Source of the DNA: Bryobacteraceae bacterium
GTDB lineage: Bacteria > Acidobacteriota > Terriglobia > Bryobacterales > Bryobacteraceae
Length of the DNA stretch: 64,000 nucleotides
Assembly: GCA_041946965.1 (NCBI GenBank)
Contig: JBHGBM010000017.1
Coordinates: 8,534-72,533 of the forward strand
Reading direction: 5' to 3'
The notes under the pieces were generated by a model. That model searched no databases and was not told the DNA's origin. It was given only the letters and a program-made list of their open reading frames with translations. Within the stretch, counting starts at the first letter, position 1; each line of letters starts with the position of its first letter. Shown piece after piece: positions 6,678 to 47,134 of the stretch. Position numbers and translations under genes: made by a program.

Positions 6678-9600
6678 ATGCCGGATCTTGAAGCCGTGCA
6701 GTTCGCGGATTTCTATGAGGCTGTGCACGGCTACGAGCCGTTCGAATGGCAGAAGCGGCTGGCTAAAGACATTCTTGAACACCACAACTGGCGCGATGTT
6801 CGCGTTCCGACCGGATGCGGCAAGACAAGCGTGCTGGATATCGCCCTATTCGAACTTGCCCTCCAGGCTGACTTGGCTCCCGAAAACCGGACAGCCTCTC
6901 GTCGCATCTGTTTCGTGATAGACCGCCGCCTGGTTGTGGACGAGGTTACTGAACACGCGATGGAAATCCGCCGTGCTCTCGGAGAAGCGAGAGCCGGCCG
7001 ACGGCAGGAGACAGTTCTTTGTACCGTGTCTCAGCGGCTCACGAAAATCTCAGCCGACCGGGACCAAGTGCTGCGCGTCGTCCGGCTGCGAGGCGGGGTG
7101 TATCGGGACGACGGGTGGGCGGCAGATCCACTCACGCCGACGGTCATCATCTCGACCGTGGACCAGATAGGATCCCGTCTTCTGTTCCGCGGATACGGTG
7201 TGAGCCCACGCAGTCGCTCTGTCCAGGCTGGTCTGCTGGGCTTCGACACCCGCATCATTTTGGATGAGGCTCACCTGGCGAGTGTCTTCGCGACTTCGCT
7301 GCAACACGTGCGCAGTTACCAAACTGATGCGAAGCGTCCGCCCCTTGGCCGTCAACGCGGCGTAAGCCTTGTTCGGATGTCGGCGACTGTGCACGAGAAA
7401 GATTGCTTCGAGCTCACGCGGGAAGAGCGAAAGGACAGGCGACTAGCGGCTCGGCTCAATGCCCATAAATGTGCCGAGTTGATCACGGTCAACGTGGAAT
7501 CGATCAGCAAGGACGAGCGAAAGAAGCAGCCACGCAAAGCCAAGGAGGTAGAGGCCAAGAATCGGCAGCACTTCGGCACCAGTGTCGCCGCTCTTGCGGA
7601 AACGTTCGCTTACGAAGATCCAGGGAAGCAAACTGGGCCTCGTGTTATCGGCGTGGTCGTGAACCGCGTTTCGACTGCCAGGACCGTGTTTGCCCGTTTA
7701 AGCACCACGAGAGGCGGGTACGCGCGCGACGTGATCCTTCTCACCGGCCGAATTCGGCCTTTCGATCGAGACCGGCTACTTCAGCTTTGGTTGCCCAAGA
7801 TCCGCGCAGGCCGCAACACTGATTTGAACAGACCGTTGTTCGTCGTCGGTACACAGACAGTGGAGGTCGGCGCGAATCTCGATTTCGACGCTCTTGTGAC
7901 CGAGGCGGCACCGTTGGATGCCTTGCGCCAACGGTTCGGCCGACTGGACCGTCTCGGCAGGCGACACGAACGTGGCTTGGCCTCCCCGGCGGCGATCGTC
8001 ATTCGGAGCGATCAGAAAAGCAGTGCGTTTGACGATCCGGTCTATGGCACCGAAACCGCAGAGACCTGGAGGTGGCTTAACAGCAAGGAGGTTCTCGGGA
8101 AGGCGAAACGCATCGATTTCGGCGTGAACCACCTCGATCCGAAGCTCAGCAAGTTACAGCCGCCAATTTCGCCGGGCATCATGGCACCTTTGCTGTTCCC
8201 ATCTCATCTCGACGCGTGGGCGCAAACCAACCCGGAGCCGGATCCGGATCCCGACCTGGAGCCGTTCCTGCACGGTACTGCAGGATCTGCTGCTGACGTC
8301 CAGATCGTCTGGCGAGCGGATCTTATCGACAGCAACGAGCTCCAATGGCGAGAAATCGTCGCTCTCATGCCACCACGCACCCGCGAGTCGCTGCCGGTTC
8401 CGGTCTACGAAGTGCGGAGTTGGCTGCGTAAGCAAGCCGCAGGCGAGATTGCGGATCTTGAAGGGGGCGCGTTCGACGTATCGGCTGAAATGGGTGCGCC
8501 ATATCGTCGCGTGCTGCGATGGTTCGGTTCCGATGATAGTCGTACCCGTCTTGCCGGTCCCGATCAAGTGAGGCCGGGCGATACAATCGTCGTTCCGGCA
8601 AGCTACGGTGGCGCGGACACTTTCGGCTGGAATCCTGAATTCAGTGAGGCTGTTTCGGACGTGGCCGAACCTTGTCTCGTGCAACTCGTTAACTCCTATC
8701 CGAAAACCGCTCTAAGGCGTCCGAGAGTTCGGCTCCGGTTGCATCCACACCTTCTCCCCAGCGCTAAAGAATTGCCGCTTGACCGAGTTCGCGGATTCTT
8801 TCGCGCCGCCGTGGATGCGGTCCGAGCGCACGACCAAGACTCTTGGCCTGCAATTGAACGGATCTTGCGTGCCATTCGGCCTTATGTGAGGGAGGCGGAA
8901 CGCGCAGCGGCTATCGATGCAATCCTACAGGCAAAGGATCGACCACAGGTCCGTCTTTACCCGCAGCAGGATGCTTTCGTGTTGACCGCTGATGTACGAC
9001 TTCCCCTCGCCGCGCCCGAAGCTCCGGCATCAGAGAATGCGGAGTTTGAGGAACCCGAAGACGACGAGATGTCGTTCAGATCCGACGGCCACCCGATTAC
9101 ACTCCTGAAGCATACGGCTGCTGTGCGAAAGAGTTGTGCCAAATTCGCCCGAGCGTGCGGGCTGGAAAAGGAGGTGCGCCGCGCTCTACTGCTCGCAGCC
9201 TCCTGGCACGACGTGGGAAAGCGCGATGCGCGATTCCAGGCATGGCTTCACGGCAGCGAGGTAAAGGCCCTCGTGGCACTTGCAGGCGATGAGCCACTGG
9301 CAAAGTCTGGCCGCGATCCGCGGAACTGGAAATCTTCTGAGGTATTTGGGTATCCGAAGGGTTTGCGCCATGAGTTCGTTTCGGTGCGTCTGCTGGAGCA
9401 GGCGGTTGGCCTACGGTGTTCTGACCCTGACCTCGCGAGGCTCCTGGTCGGCACCCACCACGGCTATGGGCGAGCATTCGCGCCGGCAACTGAGGATAGG
9501 AAACCAGTCGAGGTGTCTGTTCGTGTGAACGGAAACCTGATCGCCGTCTCGACTGACCACCGACTCTACCGTGCTGATAGCGGTTGGACGGATCTGTTCT

Positions 9601-37129: not shown

Positions 37130-37296
37130 CTCGAACGGGATACCGCATAGTGTACACCCGGCCCGCCGCCGTGCCGGGGGAGCACGCGATATACAATTGT
37201 GCTTGCACTACGATTAAGCTTCAGGTTCCGAACCGGGACCGCCGCGCACACCGATTTGCCCGTTGTTGGAGGTTGAGATTGAAGCACCGTATCTAC

Positions 37297-38415
37297 ATGT
37301 ACCTGCGTTCCGCGACTCTGCTGGGGATCGCCTGCGCGGCGATGCCGGAGACCGCGCGCGCGTGCAACGTGCCGGTGTTTCGGTATGCGATGGAACGGTG
37401 GCCCGCGGACCCCTACCAGATCGTGGTGTATTATCGGCCGGGACAGAAGGGTGCGGCCTTCGGCTTGTTGCGGGACACCGCCAACTATTCCCTCCAGGGC
37501 GTCGATGTCACCAGGCCGGAGGGGAAGGCGCTCGCGGAGCGGCAAGGCGTTGCGGCGTACCCCTGGGTGGAGATCTACTATCCCGCGCAATCCCAGGTCC
37601 GCACACCCGTGTGGGCCGGGCCTCTGACTTCGGAAACGGCTAAGAACATCCTTAACTCCCCGAGCCGGTCCCGGCTGGCCGAAATGTTGCTGGGCGGAGA
37701 CGTCGCGGTTTGGGTGCTGGTCAAAAGCGGCCACGACGAGAAAGACCGCCGTGCGCTGGACTCGCTGAAGAGCAGCCTGGACCGCGCGTCGGCCGCTCTC
37801 CGGATTCCCGAGACCGGTGTGGACGCCAACGGCAATGCGGTCGATGTCACGGATTTCAAAACCTACCCGGTGCGTTTCGGTTTGATGGAGGTGGCGCGCC
37901 ACGACCTGCGGGAAGAGCTGCTGGTGAACGCCCTGCTGGCGTCGGAACCCGATCTCAGCGGCTACGACGAACCCATGGCTTTCCCCGTGTTCGGCCGCGG
38001 CCGCGCGCTGTACGCGCTGGCCGGCAACGGGATTCAGGAGAAGAACATCCGGGAGGCCTGCGAGTCGCTGCTTGCCTGGTGTTCCTGCGAGATCAAGGCC
38101 ATGAGCCCAGGCACCGATCTGCTGATTGCGGCGGATTGGTCGCGGCCGTTCGGCGGCCGGCTGGTAAAGGACCCGGAGTTGCCCCTCACTAGCGTGAGCG
38201 CTTTTCTTCCAGAGCGGAAGCCGGTGGAAACCGCGGCCGTGCAGCCGGGGGCGTTGTGTAAGATCACGCCGCCCGCGCGCTCAACCGCTCCGCCGGCGCA
38301 GGCCCCGGCGCCGCGCCGGAACCCGCTGGCGCGCAATCTGGTGTACCTGGCCGCGGCGGCCGGAGTGGCGCTGGCGGCGCTCTCCGTAGTCCTGAGGGTG
38401 AAGGCAAAGAGATGA
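37297..38415 (+). CDS. Secreted, C-terminally membrane-anchored hypothetical protein (CNVPVFRYAxERWP family)
   Basis: ATG 37297 begins a signal peptide ending ...ARAC, then NVPVFRYAMERWPADPY. There is a C-terminal TM helix (LVYLAAAAGVALAALSVVL). The stop overlaps the next start (ATGA). Confidence 0.65.
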   Translation: MYLRSATLLGIACAAMPETARACNVPVFRYAMERWPADPYQIVVYYRPGQKGAAFGLLRDTANYSLQGVDVTRPEGKALAERQGVAAYPWVEIYYPAQSQVRTPVWAGPLTSETAKNILNSPSRSRLAEMLLGGDVAVWVLVKSGHDEKDRRALDSLKSSLDRASAALRIPETGVDANGNAVDVTDFKTYPVRFGLMEVARHDLREELLVNALLASEPDLSGYDEPMAFPVFGRGRALYALAGNGIQEKNIREACESLLAWCSCEIKAMSPGTDLLIAADWSRPFGGRLVKDPELPLTSVSAFLPERKPVETAAVQPGALCKITPPARSTAPPAQAPAPRRNPLARNLVYLAAAAGVALAALSVVLRVKAKR

Positions 38416-39674
38416 GTGTCTGGCGATTGGTCATCAGGGAAATCACGCGCAGGAAGGCCAACTTCGTATCCGGCCTGGTTGCCGTCACGCTGGCGGTGGC
38501 GGTGCTCGCCGGGTCCATGACGGTCCTCAGGCTCCACGACCTGCGGACGCAACACATTGTGGCCCGTAAGGAGCAGGAAACCAGGAAGCGGATGGCGCTG
38601 CTCGAAGACGACTACCGGAAGATCATGAAGAATCTGGGATTCAACCTGCTGATCTTCCCCGCCAATCAGAAGCTCTCCGATTTCTACGCGGACGACGCTG
38701 TCACCGCCTACATGCCGGACACGTACGCCACCCGCCTGGCCGAAGCCAGGATCGTAACCATCCGCCACCTCCTGCCGAGCCTCCAGGAGAAAGTCCTGTG
38801 GCCGGAAAAGAAGCGCACCATCATCCTGATAGGGACGCGCGGCGAGGTTCCGTCGATGTTCCGCGATGCGCAGGAGCCCATCCTGACGGCGGTCGAGAAG
38901 GGCCGCGCGGTTGTGGGGTACGAGCTTGCCCGCAGCCTCGGCCTGAAGCCGGGAGACCGCATCACGCTGTTCGGAAGGGCGTTCATCGTCAGCGAGTGCC
39001 ACGAGGAACGCGGCACGCGCGACGATATCTCCATCTGGATCGACCTCTCGCAGGCGCAGGAGATTCTGGGGAAGCCCGGCCGTATCAACGCCATCCTGGC
39101 GCTGAAATGCCTCTGCGCCGGCAACGAGCTGGCCAATGTCCGGCGCGACGTCGCCGCCGTTTTGCCGGGCGCCCAGGTGATTGAACACGGATCCAAAGTG
39201 CTCACCCGCGCCGAAGCCCGGGAACGCGCCTCCAGGGAGGCCGCCGGCGCGCTCGCGGCCGAGATGCGCAACCGGCAGCATCTGCGCGACGAGCAGGAGA
39301 GATTCTCTTCCATCCTCGTGCCCCTGGTGCTTCTGGCCAGCGCCCTCTGGGTCGGCCTGGTGTTCTACACCAACGTGCGGGAACGCCGCGGCGAGATCGG
39401 AATTCTGAGAGCCCTCGGCGCCCGCACGCGCACCATACTCGGGATGTTTCTGGCCAAAGCCTTGCTCATGGGCATTACCGGCGGATTGGCCGGATACACC
39501 GCGGGGATCCTGGTGGGCCTGGGCCGGCAGACGGATACCACGCTTGCCTTTCTGGACGTGCGGCTGTTCCTTCTGGCGTGCTGCACCGCCGTGGCTCTGT
39601 CGTTGGCGGCCAGTTGGGCCCCGGCATATTACGCGGCTCAGCAGGATCCGGCCCAAGTCCTAAGGGAAGAGTGA
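38412..39674 (+). CDS. ABC transporter permease, FtsX/MacB/LolC-like
   Basis: It has an N-terminal TM helix, a large periplasmic loop, and a C-terminal FtsX domain (EIGILRALGARTRTILGMFLAKALLMGITGGLAGY). Confidence 0.85.
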   Translation: MSVWRLVIREITRRKANFVSGLVAVTLAVAVLAGSMTVLRLHDLRTQHIVARKEQETRKRMALLEDDYRKIMKNLGFNLLIFPANQKLSDFYADDAVTAYMPDTYATRLAEARIVTIRHLLPSLQEKVLWPEKKRTIILIGTRGEVPSMFRDAQEPILTAVEKGRAVVGYELARSLGLKPGDRITLFGRAFIVSECHEERGTRDDISIWIDLSQAQEILGKPGRINAILALKCLCAGNELANVRRDVAAVLPGAQVIEHGSKVLTRAEARERASREAAGALAAEMRNRQHLRDEQERFSSILVPLVLLASALWVGLVFYTNVRERRGEIGILRALGARTRTILGMFLAKALLMGITGGLAGYTAGILVGLGRQTDTTLAFLDVRLFLLACCTAVALSLAASWAPAYYAAQQDPAQVLREE

Positions 39675-39678
39675 GGGG

Positions 39679-40344
39679 ATGCTTCGGCTGGAGAGAGTGG
39701 TCAGGACCTACCCGAAAGGCAGCCGGCGGATCACGGCGCTGGCGGCGATGGATCTCACCGTCCGCGCGGGCCAGTTTGTCGCCGTCCAAGGTCCCAGCGG
39801 CAGCGGCAAGACCACCTGCCTGCTGATTGCGGGCGGGCTGCTGCACCCCGATTCGGGCAGAGTTCTGGTGGATGGCCACGATCTTTACGCCATGACGCGG
39901 GACCAGCTCGCGGCCTTCCGGTCGCAGAACATCGGATTCGTGTTTCAGCAGTATCACCTCATCCCTTATCTGAGCGTCCTGGAGAACATCCTCGCGCCGG
40001 AAGCCGCGCGTGGACCCAAGAGCGGTCAGGAACGCGGCCGGGAACTCGCCGCGCAGTTCGGTCTCGAGCACCGGCTCGATCACACCCCCGCCGAGCTCAG
40101 CTCCGGGGAGAAGCAGCGCACGGCCCTGGCGCGAGCGCTGCTGTTCCGGCCGAAAATTCTGCTGGCCGACGAGATTACGGGCAATCTGGACCGCGCGAAC
40201 GCGGAAATCGTTCTGGGTTATCTCAGGGAGTACGTCCACACGGGAGGTACGGTCCTCCTGGTGACACATGATCGTGAAATCGCGAAGCAGGCGGACGCGG
40301 TTGAATATCTGCCTGGGCATCAACAACAGGAGGGCCCCCGGTGA
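39679..40344 (+). CDS. ABC transporter ATP-binding protein (MacB/LolD-like)
   Basis: Walker A GPSGSGKTT, signature LSSGEKQR, Walker B ILLADEITGNLD (Ile where Pro is usual), and H-loop VTHD. Confidence 0.9.
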   Translation: MLRLERVVRTYPKGSRRITALAAMDLTVRAGQFVAVQGPSGSGKTTCLLIAGGLLHPDSGRVLVDGHDLYAMTRDQLAAFRSQNIGFVFQQYHLIPYLSVLENILAPEAARGPKSGQERGRELAAQFGLEHRLDHTPAELSSGEKQRTALARALLFRPKILLADEITGNLDRANAEIVLGYLREYVHTGGTVLLVTHDREIAKQADAVEYLPGHQQQEGPR

Positions 40345-43300
40345 AGTGGTTGTTCCTACCCGCAGTCATTGGAATGTTGATCTGTGCGGCGCTGCCGCAG
40401 TCGGCCGCGGCCGCTGACTGGCCCATGTGGCGGTATGACGCCGGAAGGACGGCTTCGTCTCCGGAAGAACTGCCCGCGCAACTTCATCCCCAGTGGATCC
40501 GGCAGTATTCGCAGCGGGAACCCGTTTGGGACGATCCGTTGAATCAGGACCTGATGCCGCTGGACCGCGTGTTCGAGCCGGTGGTGCTCGGCAACACCCT
40601 GTACATGGGCTTTAACGACCGCGACAAAGTCGTGGCGCTCGACATACGCACCGGCACGCAGAGGTGGGCCTTCTATGCCGACGGGCCGGTGCGCCTCCCG
40701 CTCGCCGGAAAGGGCAACCGCCTTTACTTCACCAGCGACGACGGCTATCTCTACTGCCTGGCCGCGGACACCGGCGCCCTGCTCTGGAAGTTCCGGGGAG
40801 GACCGGCCGGCCGCAAGATCCTGGGCAACAAGCGGCTGATCTCCACCTGGCCCGCGCGGGGCGGCGTGGTGCTGTACGAAGACGCGGTGTATTTCGCCGC
40901 CAGCATCTGGCCGTTCATGGGCACTTTCATTTACGCGCTGGACGCGGAGACCGGAAAGGTCATCTGGCGAAACGAAGGCACCGGCACGGATTACCAGCTC
41001 CAGCCGCACAACTCGCCCGCTTTCGCCGGAGTTGCGCCGCAGGGCGCCATGGTGGCCCTGGCGAACAAGTTGCTGGTCTCCGGCGGGCGTTCCGTGCCGG
41101 CCTGTTACGACCGGCGCACCGGCAAGCTGCTCTACTACCACCTGGCGGCGAACAACAAGACCGGCGGTGCGTTTGTGGCCGCCGATGAGCGTCGCTTCTT
41201 TAATCACTACCGCGACCGCGACACGGACCTGTACGACACCGAAACCGGCAAGATGGTGGCGCGCAAGGTTGGCCGATACCCGGTGCTCTCCGAGGAGGCC
41301 TACTACACCTCCGGCGACTCGATCACGATCCGCGATCCGCGGGATCCCTCCAAGCCGCAATTCACGCTGAAAGTGGATGCGACCGGAGACCTGATCCGGG
41401 CCGGCTCGCGACTCTACGCGGCGGGAAACGGACAGATCACCGCCGTAGACCTTCTCGCGAACTCTCCCGGCCTGAAGACGGCATGGGTGCGGAAAGTGAA
41501 CGGCAAGGTGGAGAGGCTGATCGCGGCTAACGGCATGCTTTTCGCCGTGACACTGGACGGCAAGTTGATCGCCTTCGGCAAGGAGAGCCGTCCCGTAAGA
41601 ACGCACGTGGCGAAAGCGGTTCCGCCGCAGATCCCGCCGCTGGCCGCGCAACAGGCCCGCGCCATTCTCGCACGAACGGGAGCGAAGAACGGCTACGCCC
41701 TGATGTACGGAGCCGGAACCGGAAACCTCCTTGCGGCCCTGGCGCGCGCGTCGGACCTCGATATCGTGGCCGTGGAACCTCGCGCGGAACGGGTGGCGGC
41801 GCTGCGCCGCCGCTTCGATGCCGCCGGGCTACTGGGAAAACGCATCCACCTGCTTCAGGGCACCCCCGATACGTTCGAGCCGCCGCCCTACATGGCGTCC
41901 CTGATCGTGCTCGCGGATGGAAGCCAGCGCTGGCAGAACGACGATTCGCTGAAGAAGATGGTCCGCTCGGTGAGGCCTTACGGAGGCAAGATCTGGCTGC
42001 CCGCCACCGCCGCGCGGCCGGCCTTCGTGAAACGGGTGCTGGGGAGCGGCGACGGCCCGAAGCTGACCGCCCGGACCCTGGCCTCGGGCGCGGTGGTGAG
42101 CAAAGACGGCCCGCTGCCCAAGTCCTCCAACTGGACGCACCAGTACGGCAACGTCGCCAACACCGTCAAGTCGGACGATGATCTGGTCAAGTTGCCGCTC
42201 GGGGTGCTCTGGTTCGGGGGCGTCTCCAACCTGGATGTCCTGCCGCGCCACGGCCACGGCCCGCCGGAACAGATCGTGGACGGCCGGCTGGTCATCGAGG
42301 GCGTGGACGGCATCAGCGCCCGGGACGTCTACACGGGCAGGCTGCTGTGGAAAGCGCCTTTGGACAGGTCGCACACTTTCGGCCTGTATTTCGACCAGAC
42401 GCACCAGCCTGAAATCCCGCTGAAGGTGATTACCAACCAGCAGCATATTCCCGGCGCCAACGCGCGCGGAACGAATTTCATCGCGACTTCCGACTGGGTT
42501 TACGTGATTCAGGGAAGCCGCTGCCACGTTCTGGATATGGCGACCGGGGAGAAGAAGAAGGTGTTCTCGCTGCCCGCCGAAAACGGCGCCGAGCCGCCCC
42601 AGTGGGGCTATATCGGCGTCTCCGGGAACCTGCTGATCGCGGGCAGGGACTTCGTGCCTTTCGCCACCGCATTCCCCGAGACCGCTCCCATAAGCGAGGC
42701 AAAAACGGGAGATTCGAGCCAACACCAACAGAAGAAGGCGAGCGTGTCCGCCGGTTACGACGTTACGTCCAGCAGAGCACTGGTGATCATGGACCGCCAG
42801 AGCGGCTCGACGAAATGGACCCTGAAGGCGCGCTACGGTTTCATCCATAACGCGATTACGGCGAGTGATAAAGTGCTGTACTGCCTGGACAAGCTGCCGC
42901 CGGCGCTCGAAAAGCGCATCCAGCGCCGCGGCCGCGAACTGCCCGCCAACTACCGCATGCTGGCGCTGGACCTGGAAACCGGGCGGGTGTTGTGGGAACG
43001 GAACACGGGCGTCTTCGGAAGCTGGCTGAGCTATTCCCAGGAACATGACCGCATCTTGCAAGCCACCCGGCCTTCCCGCGACATGGTCACGGACGAGCCC
43101 GGCGAACGCATGGCGGTGTACGTGGCCTCGAGCGGAAAGCTGGTGTGGGACAAGCCGGTCAAGTACAACAATCCGCCGATCCTCTACCACGACGAAATCA
43201 TCACCGACAACGCCGCGTACAAGCTGGCCACCGGGGAACGCAAGCTCAGCGCGGACCGGCTGACCGGAGAGGATATGCCCTGGAGCTACTCGCGCGGGTA

Positions 43301-44093
43301 CGGCTGCAATTACAACATCGCCAGCGAACACCTGCTGTCTTTCCGTTCCGCGGCTGCCGGATTTTACGACCTGCTCGCCGACAGCGGCACGGGAAATCTC
43401 GGCGGCTTCAAGTCGGGGTGCACCTCCAATCTCATAGCCGCGGGCGGCGTGTTGAACGCGCCGGACTACACCAGGACATGCCAGTGCTCGTATCAGAACC
43501 AGACGTCGCTGGCGTTCATCCACATGCCGGAGCTCGAGTACTGGACAACCAACGACTTCAAGTGGAACGGCAAGCGCGTGCGCCGGATCGGCATCAACCT
43601 CAACGCCCCCGGCGACCGGGTTGCCGCCGACGGCACGCTTTGGGTGGACTTCCCCAGTGTGGGCGGAAAGTCTCCCGATCTCCCGATCCAGTTCGATGCG
43701 GCACAGACCCGCGCCGTCCGGCGGCACGCCCTCTCTTTGCAGCCGAATGGCTATGAGTGGGTGGCGGCCTCCGGGTTCGCCGGACCGCTCAAGCTTGAAA
43801 TCACGCTGGCCGAAAAAGCCGCGGACACCGCCGCGTACACCGTCAAACTGCACTTTGCCGAGATCGAAGACAAGAAGCCGGGCGAGCGGCTCTTCCATGT
43901 CCGGCTTCAGGACCGCGAGGTGCTGCGCTCCTTCGACATCGCCCGCGAGGCGGGCGGCGCGGACAAGCCCATAGTCAAGACTTTCACCGGAATCCCGGTG
44001 AAAGACACCCTTAACCTCGAGTGCCTGCCGGCATCTCCCGAGGCTGGATCGCCGCCCTTGCTGAGCGGCATCGAGGTCATCGTTGAGAACTAG
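40341..44093 (+). CDS. Giant exported PQQ-like beta-propeller repeat protein with embedded class I methyltransferase-like domain and C-terminal malectin-like domain (1250 aa)
   Basis: GTG 40341 overlaps the upstream stop (GTGA). A signal peptide is present. DWPMWRYDAGRT...LYFTSDDGYLYCLAADTGALLWKF are PQQ/BamB-like repeats. GYALMYGAGTGNLLAALA...IVAVEP is a SAM-MTase motif I-like segment. YTVKLHFAEIEDKKPGERLFHVRLQDREVLRSFDI is malectin-like. Confidence 0.75.
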   Translation: MKWLFLPAVIGMLICAALPQSAAAADWPMWRYDAGRTASSPEELPAQLHPQWIRQYSQREPVWDDPLNQDLMPLDRVFEPVVLGNTLYMGFNDRDKVVALDIRTGTQRWAFYADGPVRLPLAGKGNRLYFTSDDGYLYCLAADTGALLWKFRGGPAGRKILGNKRLISTWPARGGVVLYEDAVYFAASIWPFMGTFIYALDAETGKVIWRNEGTGTDYQLQPHNSPAFAGVAPQGAMVALANKLLVSGGRSVPACYDRRTGKLLYYHLAANNKTGGAFVAADERRFFNHYRDRDTDLYDTETGKMVARKVGRYPVLSEEAYYTSGDSITIRDPRDPSKPQFTLKVDATGDLIRAGSRLYAAGNGQITAVDLLANSPGLKTAWVRKVNGKVERLIAANGMLFAVTLDGKLIAFGKESRPVRTHVAKAVPPQIPPLAAQQARAILARTGAKNGYALMYGAGTGNLLAALARASDLDIVAVEPRAERVAALRRRFDAAGLLGKRIHLLQGTPDTFEPPPYMASLIVLADGSQRWQNDDSLKKMVRSVRPYGGKIWLPATAARPAFVKRVLGSGDGPKLTARTLASGAVVSKDGPLPKSSNWTHQYGNVANTVKSDDDLVKLPLGVLWFGGVSNLDVLPRHGHGPPEQIVDGRLVIEGVDGISARDVYTGRLLWKAPLDRSHTFGLYFDQTHQPEIPLKVITNQQHIPGANARGTNFIATSDWVYVIQGSRCHVLDMATGEKKKVFSLPAENGAEPPQWGYIGVSGNLLIAGRDFVPFATAFPETAPISEAKTGDSSQHQQKKASVSAGYDVTSSRALVIMDRQSGSTKWTLKARYGFIHNAITASDKVLYCLDKLPPALEKRIQRRGRELPANYRMLALDLETGRVLWERNTGVFGSWLSYSQEHDRILQATRPSRDMVTDEPGERMAVYVASSGKLVWDKPVKYNNPPILYHDEIITDNAAYKLATGERKLSADRLTGEDMPWSYSRGYGCNYNIASEHLLSFRSAAAGFYDLLADSGTGNLGGFKSGCTSNLIAAGGVLNAPDYTRTCQCSYQNQTSLAFIHMPELEYWTTNDFKWNGKRVRRIGINLNAPGDRVAADGTLWVDFPSVGGKSPDLPIQFDAAQTRAVRRHALSLQPNGYEWVAASGFAGPLKLEITLAEKAADTAAYTVKLHFAEIEDKKPGERLFHVRLQDREVLRSFDIAREAGGADKPIVKTFTGIPVKDTLNLECLPASPEAGSPPLLSGIEVIVEN

Positions 44094-46620
44094 AACCACA
44101 CGGCGCGCCCTCCCATGGGTCTTTGTACTCTGCGGCCTGCCCGGCGCCGCGCAGGGGCCGGAAAGCATCAGCCGCATGCTGGCGCCGGTCTACCCCCCGC
44201 TTGCCGAACAGATCGTGAGCGATTTCGAGTTGACACAGAAGCAGGGGACGGGCATCGATCTCGGCGGCGGTCCGGGCGACCTCATCATCGAGCTGTGCAA
44301 AAGAACCAAATGGATGCACTGGGTCAACGCCGATGTTGACTCCAGGGTGTTTCCGGGATTCCTGCAAAGGGCGGAGGAGGCCGGATTCAAGGGACGGGTC
44401 AGCGCCATGCTGGCCGATGCCCACGCTCTTCCCTTCCACGACGCCTTCGCCGAGTTCGTCGTTTCCAGGGGATCTTACCCGTTCTGGAAAAACAAGCGGA
44501 AGGCCTTCGGCGAGATCTACCGGGTGCTCAAACCGGGCGGGATCGCTTTCATAGGGCGGGGATTTTCGGCAAACCTTCCTCTCGAGGTGGCGCGCCAGGT
44601 CAGGGACCGGCAGAAGCGGAGCGGAAAGGAGCAGGTCTACGACCTGGATAAGGCCGCGGAGGAACTCACCGCCATCATGCGGTCGCTGGAGATTGAGGAC
44701 TACAGGATCCGCATCCCCAGACGGGGCGAGGTCAATTACGGAATTTGGGTGGAGTTCCGGAAGCCGGCCAGGGGCAGGACGCCTCCCTCGCTGCTGGAGA
44801 GACCCAACCGTGAATCGGCCGGGCTGGAGCTTTCCACCACGGTGGTGGAGAAGTCCGAAATCGAGGAGCAGGGCGCCAAGACGCTGGTGGACGCGCTCCA
44901 GTTCGTGCCGGGCGCGTGGACCGAATCCCGCGGGCGAAAGGTCAAGCAGTTCGTGTCCTTCCGCGGCCAGAAGTACCCGTACCCGGAGTATGCCATCGAC
45001 GGCGTCCTCTTCCGGGAGTTTCACGAGGTTCCGTACTTCCTCTCCTCCGCCGAAATGGAACGCGTCGAGGTGATGCGCTCCGGCGCGGCCATGCTCTCCG
45101 GCAATGCCGGGCTGGTGGGGCTCATCAACGTGGTTCCCAGAGAGTACCGCGAACGGGAAACCTCGGTGAAGCTGGAGTACGGCAGTCTGGGCTCCGCTCA
45201 TGCGCGTGTTTCTCACGGCGGCCGCGCGGGAGGCTTTTCCTACGGCCTGGGCGTGGATGCGTACCGCACGGACGGTCCGGAGGGCCGGCACGGAGAGGAG
45301 CGCCTGGCGAACTACTACGCCGGCTTGAACTGGAAACCGTCCGATGCGCTGTCTTTCTCGACGCACCTGTTCCACATCGGCGGGCGCAGGAGCATGGTGC
45401 AGGCGCTTCCGCCCGCCACCCGCAGGCTCCAAACGGCGTTAGAGGCGTTCGATCCCGTCCGGAACAGCTTCGGCACGCTGAGCGCCCTGTACCGGCCCAA
45501 TGAGCGGCTGTCCACGCAACTGCGGCTCGGCTACAGCGACCGCCACAACGTCGCCCTCGCCACAACCGGGACCCTGACAACCTCCACGCGCGATTGGGAC
45601 CGCGAACTGACCGCCGGCGCGCTCCAGTCGATCGCCCTGACCGGCAGCAACGTGATGAGGGCTGGCGCCAATTACAACCACTGGATCGCGCCGTACGGCA
45701 AGAGGTTTTACACCGGCCGGCGCTGCGACCTGGAAACCTACTCGCTCGCGGTTACCGACGAGCAGCGCGTGGGGGCTCTCACCCTCGACGGTGGACTGCG
45801 TTATCACAGGACCTACATCAACGAATACGGCGCGTTCAACATCGACGAAAACGCCAACCCCTATCGCAACGTTCCGGCCGCCGTCAACGTGTGGGAGCCC
45901 CCGGCGTGGTCGGGGAACCTGGGCGCTGCGTATTCCCTCAGCGGCAGCCTCTCCCTGGTCGGAAACCTCGCCGGCGGGACCGTGGAGCCGCGGCGGGGCA
46001 CGCTGAATGCGGCCCTGGAGCCGCCCGGCAGCGAGCGGCGTTTGATGGCGGACCTGGGTTTCCGGCTCTCCGCCGCGCGCCTTGGCGCCGGAACCCTCTC
46101 GGGGTTCTTCGTGCAACGCAAGAACGGGATCGTTCTGAACGGCGGAATCAAGACCGTCAACGGGCGCCTGATGGAGTTGTACGAGAACCGCGACCAGGAC
46201 TCGAAGGGCGTGGAACTCGATCTTCGCTCGCGCCGGTTCGGGAACAGTCTCCAGGTGTTCCTCAACGTCACGGTGATGTCCGGACGGATCGAAAGCGGCG
46301 GCGCGATGCGGCGCGATCGCGAGATGCCTCGCGCCATCGCCGGCGGCGGCGTCTCCGCCTCCAGGTGGGGTTTCGACGGGAGCCTCTTCTGGAAATCCAT
46401 CTCCTCGTACGAAAGCCTGCGGTTCGCCGAGCCTGCCGTCTATCAGCCGCTTGGCGGTTTCAGCGCCTTCGACCTGGTCCTGGCGCGGCGCATCGGAATG
46501 CGCAAGCAGACCCGCCTGTACGCCGAGGTAAGGAACGTGGCGGACAATGCCTACTCGACGGTCGTGGGCTACCCGGACTACGGGCGTCGTGCCATGATCG
46601 GCATGGAACACAAGTTCTAA
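44083..46620 (+). CDS. Fusion protein: signal peptide + class I SAM-methyltransferase-like domain + TonB-dependent receptor (plug and barrel)
   Basis: TTG 44083 overlaps the upstream gene by 11 nt. GIDLGGGPGDL...LADAHALPFHDAFAEFVVSRG...EIYRVLKPGGIAFI is Methyltransf_11-like. GAKTLVDALQFVPGAW...ERVEVMRSGAAMLSGNAGLVGLINVV is plug-like. The C-terminus ends ...GMEHKF. Confidence 0.7.
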   Translation: MRTRTTRRALPWVFVLCGLPGAAQGPESISRMLAPVYPPLAEQIVSDFELTQKQGTGIDLGGGPGDLIIELCKRTKWMHWVNADVDSRVFPGFLQRAEEAGFKGRVSAMLADAHALPFHDAFAEFVVSRGSYPFWKNKRKAFGEIYRVLKPGGIAFIGRGFSANLPLEVARQVRDRQKRSGKEQVYDLDKAAEELTAIMRSLEIEDYRIRIPRRGEVNYGIWVEFRKPARGRTPPSLLERPNRESAGLELSTTVVEKSEIEEQGAKTLVDALQFVPGAWTESRGRKVKQFVSFRGQKYPYPEYAIDGVLFREFHEVPYFLSSAEMERVEVMRSGAAMLSGNAGLVGLINVVPREYRERETSVKLEYGSLGSAHARVSHGGRAGGFSYGLGVDAYRTDGPEGRHGEERLANYYAGLNWKPSDALSFSTHLFHIGGRRSMVQALPPATRRLQTALEAFDPVRNSFGTLSALYRPNERLSTQLRLGYSDRHNVALATTGTLTTSTRDWDRELTAGALQSIALTGSNVMRAGANYNHWIAPYGKRFYTGRRCDLETYSLAVTDEQRVGALTLDGGLRYHRTYINEYGAFNIDENANPYRNVPAAVNVWEPPAWSGNLGAAYSLSGSLSLVGNLAGGTVEPRRGTLNAALEPPGSERRLMADLGFRLSAARLGAGTLSGFFVQRKNGIVLNGGIKTVNGRLMELYENRDQDSKGVELDLRSRRFGNSLQVFLNVTVMSGRIESGGAMRRDREMPRAIAGGGVSASRWGFDGSLFWKSISSYESLRFAEPAVYQPLGGFSAFDLVLARRIGMRKQTRLYAEVRNVADNAYSTVVGYPDYGRRAMIGMEHKF

Positions 46621-46678
46621 ACGCCACTGTATTAATCCCGTATTCCTCCGGTGCAAACCCGATAACCTTCGACAAGGC

Positions 46679-46707
46679 TTGAAACGGAACTCAAAATCGC
46701 GCACAAT
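46679..46707 (+). promoter_or_regulatory. Putative sigma70-type promoter TTGAAA-17-CACAAT upstream of the DksA/TraR-like gene
   Basis: TTGAAA at 46679-46684, a 17-nt spacer, and CACAAT at 46702-46707, located 38 nt upstream of ATG 46745. Confidence 0.35.
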
Positions 46708-46744: not shown

Positions 46745-47134
46745 ATGGGCCGGACTGAATTCAGGCGCTACAAGGCGATGCTCGAAGCCAAGCAGGCGGA
46801 GCTTGCCGCCGATCTCCTTCATCGCGAAGAGATCGCGATCGAAAACGCCGCGGATGCGCTGGACCAGGTACAACTCGCGGGCGCGCGCGAGCTGGCCATT
46901 CGCAACCTGCACCGGGAATCCGTTCTCTTGCGCAACATCCGCCTGGCGCTGGCGCGGCTGGAGGATGACAGCTACGGCGTGTGCCTGCGCTGCGAGTGCG
47001 AGATCAACGCCAAGAGGCTGAATGCCGTGCCGTGGACCCCCTACTGCATCCGCTGCCAGGAAGCCGCCGATCGGGACGAGTTCGACAGCGATTCCCGGGA
47101 TATCGCCTCGGAGTTGCTGTTCCGCGCCGCCTGA
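46745..47134 (+). CDS. DksA/TraR-family C4 zinc-finger protein
   Basis: ATG 46745 has AAGGAGGAG upstream. A coiled-coil N-terminus is followed by YGVCLRCECEINAKRLNAVPWTPYCIRCQ (CxxC-N17-CxxC). Confidence 0.85.
   Translation: MGRTEFRRYKAMLEAKQAELAADLLHREEIAIENAADALDQVQLAGARELAIRNLHRESVLLRNIRLALARLEDDSYGVCLRCECEINAKRLNAVPWTPYCIRCQEAADRDEFDSDSRDIASELLFRAA

Follow-up and report, generated by a model that had tools for sequence, protein, structure and literature searches.

A candidate five-gene envelope operon of a Bryobacteraceae bacterium that combines a MacB/FtsX-type ABC motor with a thioredoxin-fold anchor protein and a giant propeller protein

The locus and its gene junctions

The subject of this study is a run of five co-oriented genes on the + strand of the DNA of a Bryobacteraceae bacterium (Acidobacteriota). 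The window is a stretch of 64,000 nucleotides (positions 8,534 to 72,533 of contig JBHGBM010000017.1, assembly GCA_041946965.1), and five long open reading frames (ORFs) lie on its + strand from 37150 to 46620. The genes occupy 37279-46620 and encode, in this order, an exported anchored protein (gene 1), an FtsX permease, an ATP-binding cassette (ABC) ATPase, a giant exported protein and a TonB-dependent receptor; all coordinates are those of the window.

37279-38415, + strand: gene 1, 378 aa; signal peptide, two thioredoxin-like domains, linker, C-terminal membrane anchor
38412-39674, + strand: FtsX/MacB-type permease, 420 aa; transmembrane helix (TM) 1, periplasmic domain of about 260 aa, helical stalk, TM2-4
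39679-40344, + strand: ABC ATPase, 221 aa; PF00005 (ABC_tran), 103.8 bits
40341-44093, + strand: giant exported protein, 1250 aa; Pfam PQQ_2, Methyltransf_25 and Malectin
44083-46620, + strand: TonB-dependent receptor, 845 aa; signal peptide, methyltransferase, Plug, barrel

Gene 1 and the permease meet in an ATGA, in which the TGA of gene 1 (38413-38415) overlaps the ATG of FtsX (38412). The permease stop ends at 39674 and the ABC ATG follows at 39679, leaving a gap of 4 nt; the ABC gene, which ends at 40344, and the giant, whose GTG is at 40341, meet in a GTGA; and the giant, which closes with a TAG at 44091-44093, overlaps by 11 nt the receptor, whose TTG at 44083 has a GAGG 7 nt on its 5' side. 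These ORFs and junctions had already been proposed in an earlier reading of the letters (hereafter, the sequence-only reading), and all of them are present on the + strand. The domain calls made there for the permease, the ATPase, the giant and the receptor agree with Pfam and NCBIfam, and the products do lie, as had been stated, in every layer of the envelope: cytoplasm, inner membrane, periplasm and outer membrane.

Conservation of the module

The spread of the module was followed through gene 1, for which a word-indexed search gave more than 698 relatives and an exhaustive search 3,653 clusters at 50% identity (2,439 at E <1e-30). A scan of species-representative genomes gave at least 574 matches, of which 80 loci were kept; the counts below are over 81 distinct species-level loci, and where a smaller denominator (75 or 71) appears, only loci with enough flanking DNA were used. 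FtsX directly follows gene 1 at 57/75 loci and the ABC ATPase follows FtsX at 47/71, while an orthologous giant is found at 33/81, always on the same strand (22 downstream, 11 upstream). An orthologous receptor barrel is present at only 10/81 loci and the receptor-type methyltransferase at 5/81, and for this reason the receptor is placed outside the core. The conserved core thus consists of four genes: gene 1, FtsX, ABC ATPase and giant. 

The gene order recurs in at least nine phyla at 35-80% identity, and in three distant relatives (38-44% identity) it reads TonB receptor, gene 1, FtsX, ABC and a 1246-aa PQQ/malectin giant. Carriers belong to the Acidobacteriota, KSB1, Calditrichota, Latescibacterota, Planctomycetota, Verrucomicrobiota, Kiritimatiellae, Hydrogenedentota, Omnitrophota and others, and within the Bacteroidota to the Marinilabiliaceae, the Prolixibacteraceae and Puteibacter. 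Lack of synteny in other genomes had been named beforehand as the result that would speak against a functional unit; gene-neighbourhood comparison found that synteny holds across phyla. The possibility that these are chance neighbours with unrelated functions is effectively refuted by this synteny, in view of the start/stop overlaps and of a gene order kept in nine or more phyla.

The distribution within phyla is patchy: 3/301 Acidobacteriota carry the module (0 of two genomes of the same family), as do 28/201 Planctomycetota and 6/201 genomes of the phylum of locus L084, and the genome of the window holds a single copy. All but a few carriers are metagenome-assembled genomes (MAGs); a cultured one is Puteibacter caeruleilacunae JC036 (locus L052), with gene 1, FtsX, ABC and giant in a row. 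Akkermansia muciniphila was rejected as a carrier, as the three MAGs so labelled (L056, L068, L084; genome G301) belong to a 7.3-Mb assembly and are almost certainly mislabelled. They have the giant and gene 1, and no FtsX orthologue was found in this genome at E 1e-20.

Searches of Pfam, NCBIfam, PADLOC, the PDB and the literature gave no described counterpart of gene 1, of the conserved blocks of the giant or of the methyltransferase-receptor fusion; the earlier remark that no function has been described for the combination likewise agrees with what Pfam, NCBIfam, PADLOC and the literature returned. We read the five genes as one probable operon and as the lineage-specific version of a widespread, undescribed envelope module.

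The permease and the ATPase

The permease scores 56.3 bits with PF02687 (FtsX; cut-off 25.5) and 22.6 bits with PF12704 (MacB_PCD), short of the cut-off of 27, has some 260 residues between hydrophobic segments 1 and 2, and matches MacB and LolE in the PDB. Its periplasmic domain carries one short feature of particular relevance here:

39108-39116, + strand: C233-x-C235, invariant, in the periplasmic domain of FtsX

Both residues, within an A-L-x-C-x-C motif, are present in 51/51 sequences, and they are the sole invariant cysteines of the domain. In the translation of the ATPase the Walker A (GPSGSGKT), signature (LSSGEKQ), Walker B (ILLADE) and H-loop motifs are intact. Its best NCBIfam matches are LolD, FtsE and MacB, all under the equivalog cut-offs (LolD, 187 vs 308; FtsE, 177 vs 265); the lolCE model, too, falls short of its own (59 vs 362), and on these scores and on the identity of the partner genes LolCDE, FtsEX and MacAB were each rejected as the identity of the motor. 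The core motor is a MacB/FtsX-type, or type VII, ABC system. At two loci (G396:C5:13369-15848 and G447:C48:3197-5688) gene 1 is followed by two tandem FtsX paralogues, which suggests a LolC/LolE-like heterodimeric motor in some lineages.

Type VII ABC systems pump no substrate across the inner membrane; ATP drives a movement of the periplasmic domain, by which something is expelled, extracted or activated in the periplasm, as in MacAB-TolC, LolCDE and FtsEX-EnvC. The module resembles FtsEX-EnvC/PcsB/RipC, LolCDE-LolA and MacAB-TolC in its four-helix FtsX permease, its putative large periplasmic domain between TM1 and TM2, its separate ATPase and its long helical stalk, and here too the genes of the periplasmic partners are translationally coupled to those of the motor. 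It differs from them in the invariant CxC of the permease periplasmic domain and in having no adaptor, TolC, LolA/B or amidase activator, with equivalog scores that remain far under the cut-offs. Its own partners, a tandem thioredoxin anchor and a 1250-aa double propeller, fit none of the known partner types, so that the module is a type VII ABC system with an unprecedented partner set.

These features bear directly on the sequence-only reading, which had seen in the five genes a possible trans-envelope machine to capture, modify or export a glycan or small molecule. As an exporter, such a machine would span both membranes and expel or modify its substrate much as MacAB-TolC does. The presence of a part in each layer of the envelope and the likeness of the permease to MacB speak for it. 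However, no membrane-fusion protein (MFP) adaptor of the MacA/HlyD type and no TolC-type duct were found among the five genes or the conserved neighbour clusters; in the outer membrane there is instead a TonB-dependent importer closed by a plug, which only a minority of loci have; and in the Planctomycetota-Verrucomicrobiota-Chlamydiota (PVC) bacteria the module is combined with an importer. For glycan export in particular there is no indication, as glycan and sulfatase neighbours are not conserved either, and we consider an exporter very improbable.

Gene 1, a tandem thioredoxin-fold protein without CxxC

Gene 1 has no match among the family models of Pfam or NCBIfam. The features along its length are the following.

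37279-37362, + strand: signal peptide, with AxA-type cleavage before Cys29
37363-37365, + strand: mature N-terminal Cys, opening the motif C-N-V-P-V-F-R-Y-A-M-E-R-W
38080-38088, + strand: invariant C-S-C (C268/C270)
about 38323-38409, + strand: C-terminal membrane anchor, preceded by a disordered linker

The ORF proposed earlier for this gene is real, although its start is more likely the TTG at 37279 than the ATG at 37297 chosen then, because a GGAGG lies 7 nt upstream of the TTG and the public gene call also has 378 aa. From this start the N-terminus reads MKHRIYMYLRSATLLGIACAAMPETARA, followed by the cleavage site and CNVP. The AlphaFold2 (AF2) model, with a predicted local distance difference test (pLDDT) score of 79, shows two thioredoxin-like domains in tandem and, behind a disordered linker, a TM helix at the C-terminus. 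Its best Foldseek matches are the a-b domains of protein disulfide isomerase (PDI), calsequestrin and QSOX, with probabilities of up to 1.0 and low TM-scores (0.2-0.3), and a profile search against PDB sequences gave a single weak match (8ubh, a circadian oscillation regulator, E 0.027).

In an alignment of 244 diverse relatives C268 and C270, within W-C-S-C-E-I-K, are invariant (244/244), as are K273 and G278; C261 is present in 222 and C29 in 242, the remaining two rows being gapped at that position. There is no CxxC or CxxxC active site in gene 1, and no CxxC anywhere in the family alignment. Selenocysteine at the CxC was considered and rejected: only one homologue has a TGA in frame, and its conserved region is free of stops. 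Among the 242 sequences with C29 the residue at -1 is Ala in 215, that at -3 is A, S, V, T or G in about 190 and Leu in 34, and that at -2 is mostly Q, R, W, L, F or H. This is the pattern of signal peptidase I; the lipobox L-[AS]-[GA]-C is not matched, and gene 1 was thus rejected as a lipoprotein. It follows from the signal peptidase I pattern that the mature protein starts with a free Cys, continued by [NSD]-V-P-V-F-R-Y-A-L-E-R-W. The model shares its tandem thioredoxin domains with PDI, calsequestrin and Sco-type proteins, but of the cysteines of gene 1 one opens the mature protein and the others belong to a C-S-C helix near the C-terminus. Taken with the predicted fold, gene 1 is a putative periplasmic, C-terminally anchored, PDI-like tandem thioredoxin protein without CxxC.

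The giant propeller protein

The giant is the largest product of the operon and carries a number of unusual features.

40341-40412, + strand: signal peptide
about 41631-42110, + strand: Rossmann/pseudo-methyltransferase insert, between propeller 1 (of pyrroloquinoline quinone (PQQ) type) and the NWTHQYG block
about 42120-42275, + strand: invariant block NWTHQYG...LPRHGHGP, before propeller 2
42120-42275, 42387-42461 and 43389-43550, + strand: conserved blocks of low pLDDT (residues 593-640, 683-707 and 1017-1070)
43479-43487, + strand: C1047-x-C1049, in an invariant block that also holds C989 and C1027
about 43788-44090, + strand: C-terminal malectin domain

Across 26 orthologues 162 residues are invariant, among them five cysteines (C139, C989, C1027, C1047, C1049) and five histidines (H223, H600, H637, H639, H702), and the blocks NWTHQYG..., LPRHGHGP, YGCN...FRSxAAGFYD and NAPDYTRTCxCxYQNQTS are near-identical across phyla. 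The AF2 model of residues 25-1110 has a pLDDT of 72, and Foldseek relates it only to 8-bladed PQQ-type propellers (alcohol dehydrogenases, tetrathionate hydrolase, BamB). Both propeller halves share this fold with PQQ-dependent dehydrogenases, BamB and tetrathionate hydrolase, but the giant scores far under the corresponding family cut-offs (TIGR03075, 36 vs 480; TIGR03300 (BamB), 47 vs 285). No counterpart of its conserved blocks, LPRHGHGP and NAPDYTRTCxCxYQNQTS included, was found in solved structures, as sequence and profile searches returned generic propeller blades only.

The sequence-only reading had counted two exported methyltransferase-like domains in the operon, and both domains are indeed matched; for the giant (Methyltransf_25, residues 454-548) the claim was overstated, since motif I of S-adenosylmethionine (SAM) binding is not conserved. 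It reads YGAGTGN in the window and GTEKAD, GLQDKE, DADSVD, GVEDGQ and similar in orthologues, with GAGTG confined to the window and its closest relatives, while the Rossmann-like secondary structure is retained. To judge from this motif, the insert is a degenerate pseudo-methyltransferase in most relatives. Paralogy of the methyltransferase-like domains of giant and receptor was rejected, BLASTP relating them only at E 0.02. One verrucomicrobial locus (L049, 2362-9989) has two paralogous giants upstream of gene 1, one with an N-terminal Methyltransf_25 and the other with Laminin_G_3 in place of malectin.

The composition of the giant raises the possibility of a maturation pathway analogous to NosDFY-NosL, in which motor and gene 1 would build a metal, metal-sulfur or Cys-derived cofactor into the giant, the sole real enzyme of the set. 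The assembly of CuZ in NosZ likewise sets an ABC motor and a small tethered periplasmic chaperone beside a His/Cys-rich propeller; the ten invariant His and Cys residues of the giant would suit a cofactor site, conserved blocks that AF2 fails to place are expected where folding depends on a cofactor, and one acidobacterial copy is followed by genes for an oxidoreductase dependent on flavin adenine dinucleotide (FAD) and a NapH-like polyferredoxin. Thioredoxin-fold, membrane-anchored periplasmic metallochaperones also exist, in the Sco family. On the other hand, motor and NosFY fall into different ABC classes; a NosD beta-helix and a cupredoxin domain are both missing, and no sequence relationship was detected; gene 1 occurs at many loci without a giant within 10 kb; and one genome has giant and gene 1 yet no FtsX match. 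On balance we regard this explanation as unlikely.

The receptor and its methyltransferase domain

The receptor of the window has an N-terminal extension, delimited as follows.

44083-44157, + strand: signal peptide
44158-44787, + strand: class I SAM-methyltransferase domain (Methyltransf_11, 52 bits; Methyltransf_25 also matched)
about 44833-45120, + strand: Plug, 53.3 bits

The barrel ends in Phe (C-terminus ...MEHKF), close homologues carry PF00593, and the plug region is matched by ShuA and CirA. In its order of signal peptide, N-domain, Plug and barrel the protein follows TonB receptors with an N-terminal extension (STN; CarboxypepD_reg, SusC-like), but here a class I SAM methyltransferase, none of whose cofactor motifs is lost, forms the extension, while orthologous barrels of KSB1 and other phyla have CarboxypepD_reg at the same position. 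The best PDB match of the domain is the SAM-methyltransferase-like 3dlc (E 6e-24). Conserved at ≥95% in 63 homologues are G55, D59, G61, G63 and G65 of motif I, the motif II acid D84, the motif III D112, and the SRGS and VLKPGG segments; by its sequence, the domain should bind SAM.

The same domain is fused to the N-terminus of receptors in about 55 proteins (one of them also with CarboxypepD_reg); in six others it forms the C-terminal part of a ModA-like SBP_bac_11 binder, and it occurs in a lipoprotein with a PAP2 domain and in fusion with an esterase domain. It is always extracytoplasmic, behind a signal peptide or within an exported protein, and this placement is robust because all architectures seen carry a signal peptide or an exported partner. 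In one public gene call (P0152) the ABC ATPase of the module and an exported methyltransferase share a single ORF; since the methyltransferase half has its own Met and signal peptide, two genes were probably merged in the call, or a read-through is involved.

A search of 201 sampled Planctomycetota, 28 of them carrying gene 1, gave no match to the receptor-type methyltransferase. The control search did find it in the genome of the window, in a Latescibacterota genome and in another Acidobacteriota genome, where the domain stands alone at a distance of 270 kb from the module. With the positive control working, its absence from the Planctomycetota led us to reject it as a core part; the receptor methyltransferase is a lineage-specific accessory.

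Flanking and neighbouring genes

Two further features delimit the operon.

37130-37278, + strand: intergenic stretch that separates gene 1 from the divergent ceramidase-like gene, with GGAGG at 37268-37272
46745-47134, + strand: DksA/TraR-type C4 zinc-finger gene, 129 aa, starting 124 nt 3' of the operon

Upstream, gene 1 has the ceramidase-like gene, in divergent orientation, as its neighbour. The presumed place of the operon promoter is 37130-37278, although a promoter scan found no sigma-70-like match there. The scan also gave no promoter-like sites on the + strand inside the operon, and terminator-like sites inside it are at background (10 found vs 8.6 expected). The DksA/TraR-type gene, which is preceded by a Shine-Dalgarno sequence of its own, AGGAGGAG, and by two promoter-like sites (46669-46707), is the 3' boundary marker of the operon. 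No Rfam riboswitch or leader RNA was found near the module in the window or at the loci of 11 relatives.

Neighbours were defined by all-against-all clustering of the ORFs in the 81 loci. At 7-9 loci of Planctomycetota and Verrucomicrobiota the ABC gene is directly followed by genes for a tandem ModA-like binder, a ModB-like permease, a WtpC-like ATPase and a MoeB/ThiF enzyme; the binder exceeds the cut-off of TIGR01256. By a rough estimate such binders would be met by chance in fewer than 1 of 81 windows, and they are tied to the module independently because the methyltransferase domain of the receptor is also found fused to ModA-like binders; none was found in the genome of the window. The receptor barrels at module loci carry an N-domain of either the methyltransferase or the CarboxypepD_reg type. 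We infer that receptor and ModA-like binder-importer are alternative supply branches.

Sulfatases, Gfo/Idh/MocA, DUF1501 proteins and resistance-nodulation-division (RND) pumps were considered as partners and set aside as probable background, these being abundant families (again a rough estimate), and the glycan, sulfatase and ceramidase genes around the copy in the window are not conserved partners. A defence system was rejected, as PADLOC matches only generic domains. In one Acidobacteriota genome (G157, locus L096, 15328-17861) the giant is followed by an FAD-dependent oxidoreductase and a NapH/NosR-like polyferredoxin (Fer4_5 + Fer4_7), which hints, in this one genome only, at electron supply to the periplasm. 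Two related genomes (L001 and L004, 1-7700) have a CobW GTPase, a protein with a B12-binding domain, a Metallophos phosphoesterase and a metallo-beta-lactamase-fold protein before the receptor, and a Metallophos gene is also upstream of the KSB1 copy (L002).

A Cys-based hand-over as a possible mechanism

The most telling feature shared by the three periplasm-exposed core proteins, and one that the sequence-only reading did not mention, is an invariant Cys-x-Cys, found in the periplasmic domain of FtsX, in gene 1 and in the giant. The mechanism that we favour, at a probability of about 0.4, is that the MacB-type motor drives a Cys-based hand-over of a thiol-loving ligand or of a mixed disulfide to the giant; hand-over by the motor is preferred because a type VII ABC system moves its periplasmic domain and not a substrate through the inner membrane. 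ATP hydrolysis would power a transfer from Cys to Cys in which the periplasmic domain of FtsX and gene 1 take part together with the His/Cys-rich site of the giant, whose conserved blocks would be the destination or the reaction site. The cargo may be a metal, a metalloid, a reactive sulfur or selenium species (persulfide, selenide) or a mixed disulfide. In the Bryobacteraceae copy passage of the ligand or substrate through the outer membrane would be the task of the dedicated TonB-dependent receptor, and its periplasmic methyltransferase domain, with SAM motifs intact, may modify it there; in PVC bacteria a ModA-like binder and an oxyanion-type ABC importer would take the place of the receptor.

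Several observations weigh against this mechanism. The invariant cysteines could be structural disulfides in the oxidising periplasm, and no reductant supplier of the DsbD/CcdA type was found in the module. The most conserved blocks of the giant are exactly those with an AF2 pLDDT <50, while the less conserved blades are modelled well. The methyltransferase is missing from the Planctomycetota (0/201 hits) and from 5/8 checked module carriers, and being patchy it is not part of the core mechanism. Finally, SAM is not known to occur in the periplasm, nor is a periplasmic source of it known, which leaves a catalytic role of the receptor methyltransferase without a known methyl donor. A stronger version of the proposal, in which the module would be an envelope machine of a new class and a Cys-x-Cys relay runs from the permease through the thioredoxin-fold shuttle to the giant and is coupled in some lineages to genuine extracytoplasmic SAM-dependent methylation, is quite unlikely in our estimation; if true, it implies that SAM, or another methyl donor, enters the periplasm in a way so far undescribed.

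If the cysteines were structural, the module could be thought of as an FtsEX-like switch, in which motor and gene 1, the latter in the role of EnvC, PcsB or RipC, toggle a glycan-active giant whose malectin domain finds the substrate. A type VII motor with no efflux partner fits this description, as does a giant that combines malectin with near-100% conserved blocks typical of an active site, and the window and several relatives place the module among glycoside hydrolases and sulfatases. Such glycan genes, however, are not conserved partners; the fold of the propellers is not specific to any glycan enzyme; a switch does not account for the link to ModA-like binders; and a CxC in all three proteins, including the periplasmic domain of the motor, is hard to explain as a set of independent disulfides. 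We therefore hold a switch of this kind to be rather unlikely.

Implications

The family of gene 1, with about 3,650 clusters, has no family model, name or paper, and the module occurs in phyla that dominate soils, sediments and waters, so that a common piece of envelope biology is unannotated. A methyltransferase with intact SAM motifs on receptors, periplasmic binders and lipoproteins challenges the view of SAM chemistry as confined to the cytoplasm. A cultured carrier in which these proposals can be tested exists in Puteibacter caeruleilacunae JC036. For the MacB/FtsX mechanotransmission motors as a family, the module would add a new type of partner and a new task.

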